Source of the DNA: an uncultured Planctomycetota bacterium
GTDB lineage: Bacteria > Planctomycetota > Planctomycetia > Gemmatales > Gemmataceae
Length of the DNA: 64,000 nucleotides
Assembly: GCA_963849325.1 (NCBI GenBank)
Contig: CAWKHF010000007.1
Coordinates: 480,001 to 544,000 of the forward strand
Reading direction: 5' to 3'
Below the pieces are notes generated by a model. That model was given only the letters and a program-made list of their open reading frames with translations, had not been told where the DNA came from and searched no databases. This document shows positions 57,591 to 63,418 of the stretch, piece after piece. Numbering within the stretch: the first letter of the stretch is position 1; every line of letters begins with the position of its first letter. Made by a program: the position numbers and the translations under genes.

Positions 57591-58114
57591 TCGCGCGGCT
57601 TGATGACTTTCCGCGGCCGAGCGAAGACCTGCGTGTAGTAAACCTCGCCCTTGTCATTGCGGGCGATGCCCAGGCCCGTTTCCGTGACCTTGTTGCCGAG
57701 CAGGTTCTCGCGGTGAAGCTTCGATTCCATCCAACCCTTGACGATGGCCGTGAGGGGTGCTTCCGCTCCCTCGCTCATGGCGATGTTCTCGCTGACTTTG
57801 CCGTAATCGTAACCGACGGCCAGGACGCGCTGGCCCGGCGTCTTGCCGTCGAGAACGTGTTCCATCTTCCCCTGCCTGGCCATGTTTGCCGAGTGCCCGC
57901 GCGCCGCTCGGAACAAGAGCGTCTGCGGCCGCAGAGGCGGCAGCTTTTCCTTCGCCCGCTCCTGGTTGATTAACTCCAGGAGGGTCCCCTCGTCCTTGCT
58001 CATCTCGACGTGGGCGCCTTCCAGCCTGCCCTTTCCCTTGGCGTCCTCCGCGAAGGCCGTCGAGGCCAAGGCGGCGAAGATCAGGAAGCCAAACGCGGAA
58101 GCGAATCGAATCAT
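57587..58114 (-). CDS. CAP (SCP) domain secreted protein
   Basis: INQER, AARGHS.NM, SENIA, WMES..HRENLL. Confidence 0.88.
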   Translation of the reverse strand: MIRFASAFGFLIFAALASTAFAEDAKGKGRLEGAHVEMSKDEGTLLELINQERAKEKLPPLRPQTLLFRAARGHSANMARQGKMEHVLDGKTPGQRVLAVGYDYGKVSENIAMSEGAEAPLTAIVKGWMESKLHRENLLGNKVTETGLGIARNDKGEVYYTQVFARPRKVIKPRD

Positions 58115-58194
58115 GACAGCACCTCGCCCAAGGTCGATAGGATGGCCGCGAACCAGACCGACCTCCTGTCCCTACGATTGTCGCCCGCGGCATC

Positions 58195-58228
58195 CGCATG
58201 GCCGTTCTGCTGCAGCGACGGGTTCGGC
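58195..58228 (-). other. Truncated attC site (R''/L'' arm only)
   Basis: Minus strand GCCGAAC-CCGTCG-CTGCAGCAGAACGGCCATGCG just after the toxin stop; closely similar to the corresponding arm of the split attC. Confidence 0.7.
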
Positions 58229-58234
58229 AGCCTG

Positions 58235-58594
58235 TCAGAGCGCACTGGGCCGGCGGATGCGGATCGAGCCCGGCGCGATCACGCAGAAGGCTCCGGCCAA
58301 CTCGGCCGCATGGTCCCGAAACAGCTGGGACACGGCCTCCGCCTTCGCTGAGGGAGACAGCCCCGCCAACCGGGTGAGCACGACGCCGCCGTGGATGCGG
58401 CCGAGGCGGTACACTAACTCGCCAAAGTCCTTGTCCGCGGTCACGAGCAGGGCCGACCGCGCGTTGGCCTCGCCGAGCACTTGATCGTCCGTGATGCTCG
58501 GCGCCAGTTCGGCGACGTACACCGTGGCATGGCCATCGGCGCGCAAGCGCTCCACCACCTCCCGCTCAACACTCTCGTCGGCCAGTAAGTTCAT
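58235..58594 (-). CDS. DUF5615 PIN-like toxin
   Basis: LLADESV…DDQVL…LVTADKDFGEL; overlaps the antitoxin stop. Confidence 0.85.
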   Translation of the reverse strand: MNLLADESVEREVVERLRADGHATVYVAELAPSITDDQVLGEANARSALLVTADKDFGELVYRLGRIHGGVVLTRLAGLSPSAKAEAVSQLFRDHAAELAGAFCVIAPGSIRIRRPSAL

Positions 58595-58827
58595 ACCGGC
58601 TGCGGGCTCAAGGGGTAGACTGTGTCAGCCCGCAACGCCTGGGCGGCAAAGGCGAAGGCGGCCAGCACGGCCGGCCGGGTCAGCCGGGGGTGAGCAGCGA
58701 GGATCTGTTCGATAGGCTCGCCGGCAGCCACCTTTTCCAAGATCAACTCCACCGTCACACGGGTTCCGGCGACCACCGGTTTACCCATCATGACGGCGGG
58801 ATCGGAGACAATCAATGGTTCGCTCAT
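58591..58827 (-). CDS. DUF433 antitoxin
   Basis: IVSDPAVMMGKPVVAGTRVTV. Confidence 0.88.
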   Translation of the reverse strand: MSEPLIVSDPAVMMGKPVVAGTRVTVELILEKVAAGEPIEQILAAHPRLTRPAVLAAFAFAAQALRADTVYPLSPQPV

Positions 58828-58996
58828 CGGGGCACCTCCGACCGCCAGTCTACAGCAACCGACGAGCCAAGAGCAAGCGCGGGCCGCCGAACGACACAGC
58901 TCAGATGGGGATGATGCCGGGTTGCTCCCACCGACGACAAGCCGGCGGTATTATGGAGTAACCCAGTAAAAGCCACCCCATCTGGAGCAACCCGAC

Positions 58997-60010
58997 ATGT
59001 CCACCACTCTACCACTGTTCGTCGGACTGGACTACTCCCAACACGCCGTCCAACTGTGCGTCTTGGACCCCACGGGTCAGGTCTTGTGTAACCGCGCCGT
59101 GCCGGACTCCGCCGACGCCATCGATCAGGCCGTCCGGCGATTCGGTGCCGTCCGCGGCGCCGCCCTGGAAGCCTGCACCGGAGCCGCCAACCTCGCCGAA
59201 GAACTCGCCGACCGCTACGCCTGGCCCGTCCACCTCGCCCACCCCGGATTCGTCAGCCGCATGAAACAGTCGCCCGACAAAACCGACTTCTCCGACGCCC
59301 GCGTCCTGGCCGACCTCGAACGGGTCGGCTACCTACCCCGCGTCTGGATTGCACCCCAGCAGCTCCGTGAACTCCGTACCCTGGTCCGCGACCGCCAACA
59401 ACTGGCCGCCCAGCGACGCAACCTCAAGCTCCAGATCGGTGCCCTGCTACGGGAACACCGCCTACGCTGTAGCCACAACCGCTGGACGCGGGCCTGGCAC
59501 GCCTGGTTGGAGCATCAAGCTCAACTGCCCGAACAAGCACGCTGGGTCATGCAACAACGCCTGCGTCGGCTGGCCTGGATCGTCCAGGAGATCCGCACCG
59601 TCGAAGAACGTCTCGAACAAGTCACCGCTGTGGACGGCACCGTAACTTGGCTGCGGACGATCAAGGGCATTGGTCCGGTCACCGCCTGGACGTTGCGGGC
59701 CGAGATCGGTCGCTTCGACCGTTTCCGAACCGGCAAGCAGTTGGCGCGGTACTGCGGCCTGACGCCGTGCAACCGCTCCTCGGGCGTGCGTGAGGCCGAC
59801 GCCGGTTTGATCCGGGCGGCCAATCCCGAACTGCGTCGCGTGCTCATCGAGGCGGCCTGGCTGTTGGCTCGTCTGCAGCCGCGTTGGCGGCAACTGGCCG
59901 AGCGTCTGAAGGCACGGGGCAAACCGAGTACGGTGGTGATAGCGGCCGTGGCCAACCGCTTCGTGCGTTGGTTGTACCACGAAGGAGTCCGCCAACAGGC
60001 GGCGGCCTGA
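58997..60010 (+). CDS. IS110 family DEDD recombinase/transposase
   Basis: VGLD, LEAC, KTDFSDA, IKGIG, YCGLTP…SSG. Confidence 0.93.
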   Translation: MSTTLPLFVGLDYSQHAVQLCVLDPTGQVLCNRAVPDSADAIDQAVRRFGAVRGAALEACTGAANLAEELADRYAWPVHLAHPGFVSRMKQSPDKTDFSDARVLADLERVGYLPRVWIAPQQLRELRTLVRDRQQLAAQRRNLKLQIGALLREHRLRCSHNRWTRAWHAWLEHQAQLPEQARWVMQQRLRRLAWIVQEIRTVEERLEQVTAVDGTVTWLRTIKGIGPVTAWTLRAEIGRFDRFRTGKQLARYCGLTPCNRSSGVREADAGLIRAANPELRRVLIEAAWLLARLQPRWRQLAERLKARGKPSTVVIAAVANRFVRWLYHEGVRQQAAA

Positions 60011-60330
60011 CGGATAGTGACAAGGCGTTGTCATTGTCGGGGGAGTTCCTGAGCGGTTGCGGGTGTGCTCGGCCGGCTGCTGGGGTTTAATCCTCGCGCT
60101 CAGATGGGGCAGCCCGCAACCTTTCTTCGCATCCCATTTGGGCAGGGTCTTGAACCCACGCTCGGATAAGAAGCATGGGAGCCCCAACAGCGTCGGCGTC
60201 CTGCCGAAGATTTCGCCGCCTCCGTGCGGCGACCAGGGGCGCTCATTGCCGCCCCCTGGACCCCCGGCTAGCCTCTCTCTGTTCCGGGAGGAAGAGAGGA
60301 GACTAACGCCGAGAAAAGGTGATTTTGCTC
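60011..60330 (+). ncRNA. Predicted bridge/seekRNA of element 1 (boundaries approximate)
   Basis: 60072-60081 is antisense to the right flank; 60098-60109 is identical to the left junction. Confidence 0.6.
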
Positions 60331-60518
60331 TTGACGAGTGGCCTGGCATCATAGAAGCAGCCGGCTCACGCGGGAGGAGGCGTGATGTCGCGCGAAACCG
60401 TTAGTCGCGTGGCCGGTCTGCCGCAGCGACTGGATACTCATGAAGGCTCTTGAAGCACACTTGAAGGAGACAGCACTCAGCCGCTGTCTCCTTCACCTGC
60501 TAACAACGAGAGGTCTTC

Positions 60519-61568
60519 ATGCGCTACTTCCAACCTACACCTGACACTCGATTCTATGCCGGTGTCGATCTCCACGCCAGATCCCTCTTTCTTGTTGTCC
60601 TCGACCACACCGGACAGATTCGCTACGCACGCAATCTCCCCGCCGCACCCCAGCCCTTCCGCAAAGCCATCACACCTTTCCGCGATGGACTCGTCGTCGG
60701 CTGCGAGTGCATGCACTGCTGGTACTGGCTGGCCGACGCCTGCCGCGACGACAACATCCCCTTCCGGCTCGGACACGCCTGGGCAATGAAAGCCGTCCAC
60801 GGCAGCAAGACCAAATGCGACCGTAAAGACGCCGAGGCCATCGCCCACCTGCTCAAGGGCGGCAACTTCCCGCTCGCCTATGCCTACCCCAAAGAACGAC
60901 GTGGACTCCGCGACCTGCTCCGCGCACGCCTCCGCCTGGTCCGCCAACGCGCCGAACTCTACGGACACGTCCACACCGCACGACGACAGCTCAACTTGCC
61001 GCCCATCTCCAACGATGTCAAATACAAGTCCAAGCGTGCCAGCGTCCTGGCCGACATCGACGACGACTGCGTCCGTCGCCGCGTCGAGGCCGACCTGTCG
61101 CTGCTGGAGCCGCTCGATACCACCATCCGACGACTGGAGAAGGACATCGAGGTCGCCGCACGACAGCACTATGCCACCGAGATGGCCGTGCTGCAATCGA
61201 CACCCGGCGTCGGCCTCGTCATCGCCCTGACCATCCTTTTGGAGATCGACACCCTCGAACGCTTCGACACCCGCCAACAGTTCTGCTCCTATGCCCGGCT
61301 ATGCGGCGCCCGCCAGGAGTCGGCCGGCAAGAAGGTGGGCACGGGCAACGCCAAGCAGGGCAACGCCTGGCTGAAGTGGGCCTTCTCCGAGGCGGCCGTA
61401 CTCAGCGCCCAGAAGAACGAACGCATCGGCCAGTACCTGGACAAGCTGTCGGGCCGTCTGGGCCAAGCCAAAGCCTTGTCGGCATTGGCCCACAAGCTGG
61501 GACGAGCCTTCTACCACATGCTCCACAAAAAGGAGGTCTTTCAGATCGACCAATTCCTGAGACACTGA
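60519..61568 (+). CDS. IS110 family DEDD recombinase/transposase, clearly different from element 1
   Basis: AGVDLH, GCEC, KCDRKDA, PGVG, SYARL…ESAG. Confidence 0.93.
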   Translation: MRYFQPTPDTRFYAGVDLHARSLFLVVLDHTGQIRYARNLPAAPQPFRKAITPFRDGLVVGCECMHCWYWLADACRDDNIPFRLGHAWAMKAVHGSKTKCDRKDAEAIAHLLKGGNFPLAYAYPKERRGLRDLLRARLRLVRQRAELYGHVHTARRQLNLPPISNDVKYKSKRASVLADIDDDCVRRRVEADLSLLEPLDTTIRRLEKDIEVAARQHYATEMAVLQSTPGVGLVIALTILLEIDTLERFDTRQQFCSYARLCGARQESAGKKVGTGNAKQGNAWLKWAFSEAAVLSAQKNERIGQYLDKLSGRLGQAKALSALAHKLGRAFYHMLHKKEVFQIDQFLRH

Positions 61569-62170
61569 GAAGCCAGGGCGCGGCCGGCGAGCCGAAGCCG
61601 AACGGGAGCCGCTACGGGCTAACCCTTACGACGACCCCCACCATCCAGGGAGCATCGACTCCGCAGTGGGGGTCCGGGACCGCCCAGGCATCCAGCCGCT
61701 TTGATGGGACGCCGGCCGCGTCCGTATTATTTCGACCGCGGTGGTCGCAAAAACAGGCCGCGATCCGCCGGTGGGTCGGGGGACCAACGGGATCAGCGTA
61801 ACGCTGTCCCAAGGAATCGGGCTTGGCTTTGAGCCATCCCACGTCCTCCCGACCCCCGCCAGACCGCGACCCGTGATCGCAAGGAGCCATTCGCCCGGAC
61901 GATCCGCCCCAGTCGCCAGCCTGGCCGAACGGGACGCTCCTTTGGGGGAGTGAGCCAGTCGCTTTTTGAATGGCGGCGAAGCTGGGAACGTATGAATATC
62001 GGGACCGGCCAGGGCAGGTTCCCTGGCACAGCCGCCTGGTCCTTCGGGTCTGGGCCGCCGGAGTCCGCATGAGTGTTGGGTGCGGTTCGCCTCGGCCGTG
62101 GGCCGAAGGTGTTCCGCGTCCGTCGCTGATATCCAAGCCGGATCGCCGAGGACGATTGCTCACTGCCGCT
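61569..62170 (+). ncRNA. Predicted bridge/seekRNA of element 2, with two target-like modules and one donor-like loop
   Basis: Repeated GCCGAACGGGA…CCAG(C/T)CGCTTT; ATGAGTG at 62069 and TATCCA at 62130 match the element ends. Confidence 0.6.
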
Positions 62171-62361
62171 GCAACCTTGTTCGGTCATCCTTCCGGCAAG
62201 AAAAACGCCGGAGATACCCGTTCCCGTGGAAAATATTTTTACTTGACACCAAGAGCCTTATGAGTGCAACCTTGTTCGGTCATCCTTCCGGCAAGAAAAA
62301 CGCCGGAGATACCCGTTCCCGTGGAAAATATTTTTACTTGACACCAAGAGCCTTATGAGTG
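62170..62361 (+). repeat. Exact tandem duplication with a 95-bp period
   Basis: 62170-62266 equals 62265-62361, overlapping at TG. Confidence 0.95.
62243..62266 (+). promoter_or_regulatory. -35 box at the IS right end that would form a promoter on circularisation
   Basis: TTGACA at 62243 (copy at 62338); joining the ends places GATACT from the left end 17-18 bp downstream. Confidence 0.55.
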
Positions 62362-62473
62362 TTCGGCGTCTGGTGTATTGTCGCTGACTCCCGCCGAACG
62401 ATAACTAAGTTAGTCGCTGGGTGACGAACAATAAATCCTCTCTCGTCCATCCCTTCCGCTTTGCTCTTGGAGC

Positions 62474-62800
62474 TTACTTACGGTAGCCCTGTCTCTTTAA
62501 CTCATCATTTATCAAGCGCCTATTCGCATCTTTACGTTCCCTTTCATTCCTATCCTCCATCCATTTTAACGTCTCTCTCCACTTTTTTTTCTCCTTCTCC
62601 GTCTTCTCCGCCTGTTCTGCTGCTTTCTCCTGCTGACGTTTTTTTGCCGCCTCCTCCCTCTCTTTACTCTCTCGCTCGATTCTCTCCTGTTCTACGGGTT
62701 GATTCAACCATATGCCGATCAAAGCTATCGGCACTATCGTTAATAAAGTAAATACGACCCCTCGACCCCATGGTGTCGGTGAATCACTCGTCTTATTCAT
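62474..62800 (-). CDS. Hypothetical protein (one TM plus charged coiled coil), low GC, possible cassette gene
   Basis: 108-aa ORF, purine-rich leader, same strand as the attC sites. Confidence 0.6.
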   Translation of the reverse strand: MNKTSDSPTPWGRGVVFTLLTIVPIALIGIWLNQPVEQERIERESKEREEAAKKRQQEKAAEQAEKTEKEKKKWRETLKWMEDRNERERKDANRRLINDELKRQGYRK

Positions 62801-62826
62801 ACCTACTACCCCCTGCTGTCGCCGAG

Positions 62827-62970
62827 TTACTGATCATTGCGCAAAGAAAGTTAAGTTTCTTACAGCTTGCCTTTCAGGTCGAAATCCTCAGCGATTCCCG
62901 CAGAAAGCAACGATTTCGGCCCCAAATTCACCCGGAAAAAGTTTAACATTCTTTGCGCAACGGTCAGTAA
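62827..62970. mobile_element. MITE-like element
   Basis: 28-bp terminal inverted repeats (62827-62854 / 62943-62970, 3 mismatches); too short to encode a transposase. Confidence 0.65.
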
Positions 62971-63418
62971 GACTAGAATGTGCTTGCGCACTTGGACCAT
63001 CCCCGGATTTCACTCCCCCGACGCTGAGGATTCAAGCGAAATCCTTTTATCCTCAATAAATGCCCTGTGCTTATCAGAGCCACAAGCCGATCGCACAACC
63101 GTCTGAGAAACATCCGGTCCATTTGAGCGTGCCATGTGGAGTAATTGCCGTTAGCGTGTCTGTGTCACCCACACCCGCCAGGTCTCTTCCTGATCGTTTC
63201 CGCCCAAATGCTGGGCCTCCTGCCGTTCCCCGTGGGTTTCCGGAACTATACGCTTGTCACCCTCGCCCCGTGAGCGCCTACCTCAGGGCAACGCTGTGGC
63301 ACAAGACGCACATGTTCCCCCACACCGTTCCAGTAGTGTGAAGGTCAGGCTGATGCCCGTCTCGATGGCGAAGCCCGTCCTGTCGCCGAAGACCACCGCC
63401 ACAGGAATGCCCTTCTTC

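Follow-up and report, generated by a model that had tools for sequence, protein, structure and literature searches.

The insertion sequence and its ends

The window analysed here, a stretch of 64,000 nucleotides from an uncultured planctomycete of the Gemmataceae (contig CAWKHF010000007.1, positions 480,001 to 544,000), contains an insertion sequence (IS) of 1928 bp at 60434-62361. Unless indicated otherwise, all features described below lie on the + strand. The element comprises an 85-nt left end (60434-60518), a gene for a 349-aa transposase (60519-61568) and a 793-nt non-coding tail (61569-62361). It is an IS1111-type member of the IS110 family, its tail is probably the guide-RNA region, and its insertion point is G|TT in the R' box that ends attC-like palindromes. 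The tail holds two related target-loop modules, M1 and M2, and the covariation of M1 with the flanks of relatives argues for guides that use opposite DNA strands. A previous interpretation based on the bare sequence (the sequence-only reading) had recognized the tail as the guide-RNA region of an IS110/IS1111-type element aimed at attC-like sites, which is supported here. It had also placed both halves of each target guide on one strand, and this geometry is wrong.

The transposase is classified as an IS110-family RNA-guided transposase by Pfam and NCBIfam models, all above their cut-offs: PF01548 (DEDD_Tnp_IS110; 44.1 bits, cut-off 29), PF02371 (Transposase_20; 62.3 bits, cut-off 21.3) and NF033542 (IS110 RNA-guided transposase; 183.3 bits, cut-off 140). 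Three properties place the element in the IS1111 group. Its non-coding sequence is longer behind the transposase gene tnp than before it (793 nt downstream vs 85 nt upstream), the subterminal inverted repeats measure 15-16 bp (7-17 bp in the group), and the guides of M1 follow the IS1111 order, with GCCGAAC (61597-61603) preceding a sense 8-mer (61696-61703) and both overlapping on the G before the junction. The left subterminal repeat (60437-60452) and its partner (62345-62359) share 15 matching positions with one indel and are kept in relatives. A scan of 58500-63000 against Rfam returned no match at E <= 1.

The ends of the element, 60433|60434 and 62361|62362, are read from a second copy and from uninterrupted genomic sites. 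Copy B is 99% identical and is located in the same genome (handle G000; 8.2 Mb, 65% G+C, assembly 84.7% complete) at C12:879951-881804. Its ends read ...GCAGCG(A/C)CTGG|ATACTC... and ...TTATGAGTG|TTCGGC. Copy B measures 1833 bp, the difference being a 95-bp duplication: in the window copy only, the last 95 bp are present as two exact tandem units (62170-62359), so that the right end is present twice, while copy B has a single unit. The tail amounts to 698 nt once the duplication is subtracted. Each 95-bp unit begins with TG, like the two bases past the right end, and the upstream border of the duplication, CCGCTG|CAACC (62164-62176), resembles the left target. The duplication could be an event made by the recombinase, or it could provide alternative right ends of the kind described for ISPpu9 in the published text available.

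A -35-like TTGACA (62338-62343) is followed by 17 nt up to G62361 (the whole feature spanning 62338-62361). In a circular form, G62361 joined to the ATACT of the left end would create a -10-like GATACT. By analogy with the IS1111/IS110 elements described in the accessible literature, this putative junction promoter may drive expression from the circle. Both CTTGAC and ATACT are kept in relatives.

Relatives and target site

About 70 relatives, among 80 of 359 and 80 of 567 matches listed, belong to a Gemmataceae/soil family (62-93% protein identity in the 68 with a visible left flank, from genomes and soil metagenome contigs). About 60 others belong to a marine gammaproteobacterial clade, and both groups share the insertion position. 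The closest database relatives are Gemmataceae assemblies. The gammaproteobacterial elements are 45-50% identical, measure ~1585 bp and insert at ...nnnnCTTG|TTA(G/T/A)..., the same position in the box.

The left target half (60413-60433), common to copy B and the uninterrupted sites, is the L' arm of an attC-like repeat and ends in TGG. The right half is TTCGGCG (62362-62368), and together with G62361 it forms the R' box. The left flank ends in TGG in 64 of the 68 relatives where it is visible; the right flank starts with TTCGG in 34 of 47 and with TTAGG in 3 of 47. Sites of the host genome that carry no insertion have the sequence ...GGTCTGCYGCAGCGnnTG GTTCGGC (end ...CTG GTTCGGC), which places the element between G and TT. 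A TG core was rejected because uninterrupted sites read CTGGTTCGGC. GG, or at least its last G, fits as the core, since right ends finish in GG in 34/47 relatives and in TG in 10/47.

Each target site forms the 3' end of an imperfect palindrome of ~105 nt, in which GCCGAAC is followed by an arm, a spacer, a second arm and GTTCGGC. This layout, R'' GCCGAAC .. L'' .. L' .. R' GTTCGGC, was recognized by eye in 18 of 35 pattern matches. It is that of attC sites, whose box names R'', L'', L' and R' are used here, and G|TT of the R' box is where integron integrases exchange strands. No integron integrase scored above the cut-off (best 85.3 bits vs 265) in an assembly that is 84.7% complete, and the sites are therefore called attC-like.

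About 18 such palindromes are distributed over at least 9 contigs of the host genome, some of them 4-6 kb apart. Two sites in the window bracket a cassette-like stretch of ~650 bp with two overlapping open reading frames of 118 and 77 aa on the minus strand (58100-58229, 58235-58827 and 58886-58904). Neither matches an NCBIfam model, and the pair looks like a toxin-antitoxin arrangement.

Secondary structure of the tail

The tail folds into two covariation-supported domains, M1 and a domain closed by helix P1. M1 (61576-61723) forms a stem by itself, interrupted by an internal loop, with outer arms at 61576-61589 and 61710-61723. Its consensus fold, built on 53 sequences, has 32 pairs, of which 16 show a compensatory change, with 97.4% of cells paired; none of 500 shuffles equalled it on any measure. 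Taken as a single sequence, M1 also stands out for its stability (z -4.26). It is followed by a conserved spacer domain of ~175 nt (61724-61899) with small conserved hairpins, which is found in the Gemmataceae family and is absent from the gammaproteobacterial relatives.

In the second domain (61900-62089), helix P1 (61900-61911 / 62077-62089) encloses M2, the donor guides and the helices P4 (62009-62014/62021-62026) and P5 (62031-62042/62047-62058). The consensus of 46 sequences has 44 pairs, 19 with a compensatory change, and 96.9% of cells are paired (0/500 shuffles). P1 itself covaries, with C-G replaced by U-A in 7 sequences, and is kept in the gammaproteobacterial clade with unrelated sequence. 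G-U pairs, which arise solely when the + strand is the RNA, are found at, e.g., columns 16/201 in 32 of 46 sequences.

M2 (61914-61978) is an arm resembling a target loop and paralogous to M1. Its outer stem is formed by 61914-61921 and 61972-61978, and its loop strands are 61922-61931, with GCCGAAC at 61924-61930, and 61957-61971. The common form of both modules is (G)AGCC - 2 to 4 nt - GCC(G/U)AAC - GG, an inner hairpin, then CC - (A/C)G - nCG.. - YTTYG - A(U/A) - GG, and the gammaproteobacterial clade has the same two modules.

The two modules had been noticed from their repeated motifs, and they are real paralogues. All motif coordinates given for them were correct and the proposed complementarities exact. 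GCCGAACGGGA occurs at 61597-61607 and 61924-61934 (2 in the window vs 0.17 expected; 2 of 100 shuffles reach 2), and CCAGYCGCTTT at 61692-61702 and 61955-61965 (2 vs 0.10 expected; 0 of 100 shuffles). Reverse-complemented, GCCGAAC gives G62361 and the adjoining TTCGGC (62362-62367), and CCAGTCGCT (61955-61963) is the exact reverse complement of the left junction (60425-60433). As for the question whether the motifs merely form internal stems, the CC of CCAG, and of CCAG this dinucleotide alone, does lie in an invariant stem; most of the other motif bases are located in the strands of the internal loops.

Probable target guides of M1

As the sequence-only reading had it, GCCGAAC occupies the 5' strand of each internal loop and complements the right target's top strand, G|TTCGGC. 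In M1 it is found at 61597-61603, within the unpaired loop strand 61594-61603. In both modules, the sole variable base of the heptamer faces the sole variable base of the R' box. At this position of M1 (61600), 52 sequences have T in 29 cases, G in 22 and C in 1 (U or G in 51/52), and M2 has U or G in 49/52. On a tree built without the guide columns, this base changed at least 9 times in M1 and at least 13 times in M2.

The left-target guide of M1, CCGCTTTG (61696-61705), repeats the left target in sense orientation and is hence complementary to the bottom strand. In the gammaproteobacterial clade (57 elements), all RNA columns were compared with 12 flank positions in both senses. The scan-wide 95% null lay at z 4.26, and two diagonals alone exceeded it, both in the sense orientation: the 8-mer of M1 (z up to 8.5), which in this clade consists of the eight bases directly before AU-UAG, and the 8-mer of M2 (z up to 5.1). 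In the antisense orientation the highest value, 4.1, stayed below the null.

For the window's family, the register 61696-61703 was fixed beforehand from homology with the gammaproteobacterial clade. Compared with positions -8 to -1 of the left target, it shows 235 identities vs 222.5 +/- 3.5 expected (z 3.54, 0/5000 shuffles, n=47). Column 61699 against position -5 gives 31 identities vs 21.1 expected, a value found in 1 of 5000 shuffles. In a mutual-information scan of all RNA columns against the flanks (5937 tests), no guide position survived correction for multiple testing. An alternative register at GATGG in M1 was discarded (z -2.03).

The sense guide stands beside CCAG(Y)CGCT, the segment that the sequence-only reading had proposed as the left-target guide. 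That segment does not covary with the left target in either module (z 0.26 in M1, 0.10 in M2). Covariation in the sense orientation, together with its absence in the antisense one, points to the geometry published for IS1111, in which the complement of the top strand lies 5' and that of the bottom strand 3'.

Probable donor guides and junction-reading bases

The left-donor guide is a sense copy of the right end, ATGAGTG (62069-62075), followed by TT (whole feature 62069-62077, ATGAGTGTT). It had been proposed as a donor guide, and covariation supports this: columns 62072 and 62073 covary with right-end positions -4 (mutual information 0.88) and -3 (0.57), with 0/500 shuffles each. The covarying pairs are identities, and they are maintained through four alleles (examples are GAC, GCG, GTG and CCG). 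In a third copy in the host genome (copy C) and in the relative L016, ATGACGG is present in the left-donor guide and in the right end alike.

The candidate right-donor guide is ATGAATATC (61992-62000), a complement of G|ATACTCAT at 8 of 9 positions in the window copy. The commonest form among aligned relatives, ATGAGTATC, complements it at 9/9. In the divergent relative L146, two changes in this guide match an altered left end. TATCCA, which does occur at 62130-62135 as had been reported and was then seen as the donor partner of ATGAGTG, was tried as right-donor guide and dropped, being unconserved; most relatives have GATAGCC there.

The sense guides do not end at the junction. Behind the left-target guide of M1 stands AT, as at the start of the left end, and behind the left-donor guide stands TT, as at the start of the right target. 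In the gammaproteobacterial clade, the sense guides likewise continue into the non-cognate right partner. These additional two bases suggest that the sense guides span the recombinant junctions in the way handshake bases do.

A second, unrelated IS110-family element is located next to the element studied here (58905-60357; tnp 58997-60010, 337 aa, NF033542 204.4 bits). Its inverted repeats are ATGATGCC/GGCATCAT, and its insertion point, GCTCAG|...|CAGCCGG with a shared AG, falls in the L'' arm of the attC-like site that also holds the element studied here. Another copy of its right end is found at C5 near 713181. The guides in its tail are the antisense CCGGCTGCTG (60073-60082), the sense GCTCAGATGGGG (GCTCAG+ATGGGG, 60098-60109) and the sense AGAAG+CA (60169-60175), in the same order as in the window element. 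Here, too, the sense guides extend into the non-cognate right partner.

Possible role of the second module

M2 occupies the place where the neighbouring element has its only target loop, in the order target loop, right-donor guide, left-donor guide. M2 may be the ancestral loop, and M1 a duplicate which now chooses the target. A tentative scenario, in our view somewhat short of even chances, is that of a natural split or two-loop guide system: after duplication of the loop, M1 took over target choice, whereas M2 stayed nested in the donor multiloop with a heptamer that flips between variants of the R' box.

The M1 and M2 8-mers of 52 gammaproteobacterial elements differ at 147 positions. The target agrees with M1 at 67 of them (expected 55.0 +/- 4.9; 42/5000 shuffles) and with M2 at 29 (expected 35.7 +/- 4.4; 4753/5000 shuffles). 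The signal of M2 thus appears to stem from its resemblance to M1. Neither reading of M2 covaries with the left target in the window's family (sense registers z 0.09 and 1.19). GAATGG (61968-61973) was considered as an M2 left guide, as it fits CG..TGG. It was rejected with z 1.19, and GAAT(A/G)G is also present in gammaproteobacterial relatives with another target.

Less probably, M1 and M2 are both working target loops of canonical geometry, used for two attC variants or for excision vs insertion. The sequence-only reading had likewise suggested two target loops covering attC variants. Each module is conserved in two distant clades, and the M2 8-mer exceeds the scan-wide null of the gammaproteobacterial clade (z 5.1) and shows 268 identities vs 241.1 +/- 6.5 expected (0/5000). 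The variable base of the M2 heptamer, with the frequent changes described above, faces the variable base of the R' box. Moreover, the heptamer alleles of M1 and M2 differ in 11 of 52 elements (G/T in 9, T/G in 2), and copy C, inserted at TTAGGG, has CCTAAC in M2 and GCCGAAC in M1. Against this stand the discordant positions, at which targets follow M1 only and M2 has no signal of its own, the low z values of both M2 sense registers in the window's family, and lineage effects, which can create the M2 signal of the gammaproteobacterial tests.

Strength of the guide geometry and alternative explanations

Several observations speak against opposite-strand guides and an RNA of the proposed architecture. 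In most relatives, the U of the heptamer faces C of GTTCGGC (M1 29/52, M2 37/52), which leaves a central mismatch. The covariation in the window's family depends mainly on one column (61699), and its z of 3.5-3.7 is lower than the scan-wide 95% null of 4.65; the signal is counted despite this because the register had been set in advance. Between the sense guide and the left target of the same copy, 4/8 positions agree in the window copy and 5/8 in copy B, whereas the antisense reading matches at 9/9 (M2) and 8/9 (M1) in the window copy and keeps on average 6.33/9 (M1) and 6.06/9 (M2) across the family. The left end is nearly invariant, so that the covariation test of the right-donor guide is weak, and gammaproteobacterial relatives show two departures in that guide. 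When a single sequence is considered, the stability of the P1 domain is unremarkable (z -0.15). As for expression, nine RNA runs contained only 4-5% of the sampled words, and four of them gave contigs of relatives. These soil/rhizosphere contigs (X1, X3, X4, X6) are 85-95% identical and span the tail (61450-62264), and one of 691 nt covers 61582-62263. They have no usable ends or strand and DNA carry-over is possible, so they are no evidence of transcription.

The antisense matches are at the heart of the model put forward from the sequence alone, in which each module reads one strand only and GCCGAAC plus CCAG(Y)CGCT form a split antisense site, perhaps for folded single-stranded attC DNA. 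We regard it as improbable, even though the window copy shows exact complementarity of 7 + 9 nt to the top strand, both segments lie mostly in loop strands, and relatives retain the average complementarity given above. The matches are accounted for by the CC of the invariant stem, part of the AGCC(N)G motif, and by a CG dinucleotide; since CG is self-complementary, it serves the sense reading equally. Of the nine matching bases in the window copy, seven are conserved, one is an A typical of the clade and one matches by luck, and copy B has 8/9. Where pairing would require A opposite the invariant T(-3), A is present in 22 of 59 M1 loops and 16 of 53 M2 loops. Column 61696 as a complement of left-target position -5 yields 15 matches vs 18.7 expected. 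AGCC(N)G is retained in the gammaproteobacterial clade although the left target there ends in CTTG, so this part of the motifs is indeed invariant in spite of a different target, while the sense 8-mer beside it tracks the targets. Finally, the neighbouring element and published seekRNAs use opposite strands.

That the modules act instead as DNA, either as internal attC-like half-sites binding the recombinase or as decoys or pseudo-targets, is very improbable: GCCGAAC with CAG..CGC after it looks like the R''-L'' half of the repeats in the genome and the internal site at 62164-62176 borders the 95-bp duplication, but the helices stay paired by means of G-U pairs, which are possible only if the + strand is read as RNA, the compensatory changes in the long-range helix P1 fit an RNA fold, and family members have been shown experimentally, according to the published text available, to use RNA from the tail region (PMC11187229).

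Proposed mechanism

Under the opposite-strand arrangement, the RNA would be transcribed from the + strand, with or after tnp and most likely from the promoter at the joined circle ends, and would then be processed. It would consist of two domains. The stand-alone stem M1 would provide the working target-binding loop: its 3' strand CCGCTTTG (61696-61703), a sense copy of the left target, would pair with the bottom strand, and its GCCGAAC (61597-61603) with the right target's top strand, as in IS1111 seekRNAs. The P1-closed domain would carry the donor guides in its multiloop, with ATGAATATC complementing the top-strand sequence of G|left end and with ATGAGTG repeating the right end in sense orientation. 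The sense guides would extend by two bases into the non-cognate right partner and thereby read the recombinant junctions. M2, the paralogue of M1 within the P1 domain, would have kept its right-target heptamer, while its left strand would no longer track targets independently.

Comparison with known systems

IS1111 elements are reported to use a seekRNA of 70-100 nt from the downstream non-coding region, with a longer form of 145-170 nt; the complement of the top strand lies 5' of that of the bottom strand and the matches overlap in the target (Siddiquee et al. 2024, PMC11187229, available text). Many IS1111 bridge RNAs have their donor-binding bases in a multiloop (Durrant et al. 2024, PMC11208160, sections available). 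The element described here shares with ISEc11 and ISPa11 a DEDD transposase of ~340 aa, subterminal inverted repeats, a long downstream non-coding region, the guide order with overlapping matches, donor bases in a multiloop and a circle-junction promoter, which is a prediction in our case. Unlike the RNAs of the reported lengths, its tail measures 793 nt, and the target-loop module is present twice, once outside and once inside the donor domain. No second target loop or second seekRNA was found in the literature searched, which excludes the supplementary figures of Siddiquee et al.

ISKpn4, ISPst6 and ISPa25 target attC sites (PMC11187229, available text). In the accessible descriptions, this seekRNA-using group is, like the window element, of IS1111 type and inserts in one orientation near the R' end. 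The insertion point of the three is printed as 6 nt left of GTTAG (review Table 1, PMC13604230, with reference to Siddiquee et al.). The position G|TT found here lies 7 nt to the right of this printed point, and the element is set apart from the group by that description. Among the 25 matches listed in a plasmid search with the protein of a gammaproteobacterial relative, none exceeded 71% and none came from the hosts expected for ISKpn4/ISPst6.

In IS621, the guides are on opposite strands (PMC11208160), and extra bases, the handshake guides, pair with the non-cognate partner (PMC11208158; for both papers, the parts available). The window element resembles this bridge RNA, as far as described there, in having loop strands that would pair with opposite DNA strands across the crossover, separate target and donor guides, and extra bases for the non-cognate partner. 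It differs from the simple internal loops of IS621, with a 2-nt core under all four guides, in that its donor guides lie in a multiloop, its guides for left and right share a single base (G), and the extension bases lie on the sense (left) guides. The guide order is also reversed relative to IS621, both in M1 and in the donor guides.

Other copies in the host genome

A miniature derivative is found on the minus strand at C5:954502-954889 (loci L004 and L006). It consists of 96 bp of the left end and the last ~290 bp of the tail with the donor guides and the right end; M1, tnp and the first (5') half of M2 are missing. Its flanks, GCAGCGAATGG and TTCGGCG, show that it sits in a normal target site. 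Copy C (locus L003, C12:1417572-1418760) is 86% identical and has no 5' part. Its M2 heptamer and left-donor guide depart from those of the window copy, and these differences parallel those of its flank and right end. Three further loci (L008-L010, at C12:510833, C7:458540 and C7:405422) are isolated matches of ~55 bp, 83-91% identical to the right end and flank, which may be solo ends or ends of related elements.

Significance

The claim of greatest consequence, a guide RNA that reads one strand only, fails, and the element obeys the published IS1111 rule. What emerges is a well-populated natural family of ~70 soil and ~60 marine members with known flanks. It is of use to the study and engineering of bridge and seek RNAs, as one recombinase scaffold carries a duplicated target loop, donor guides are placed in a covariation-supported multiloop, and sense guides appear to read two bases into the recombinant junctions. 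Insertion takes place exactly at G|TT of the R' box, and two unrelated IS110-family elements are located in one attC-like site, which suggests that attC-like repeats serve as landing pads. A two-loop guide system, if true, could give access to a wider range of attC variants or could separate excision from insertion.

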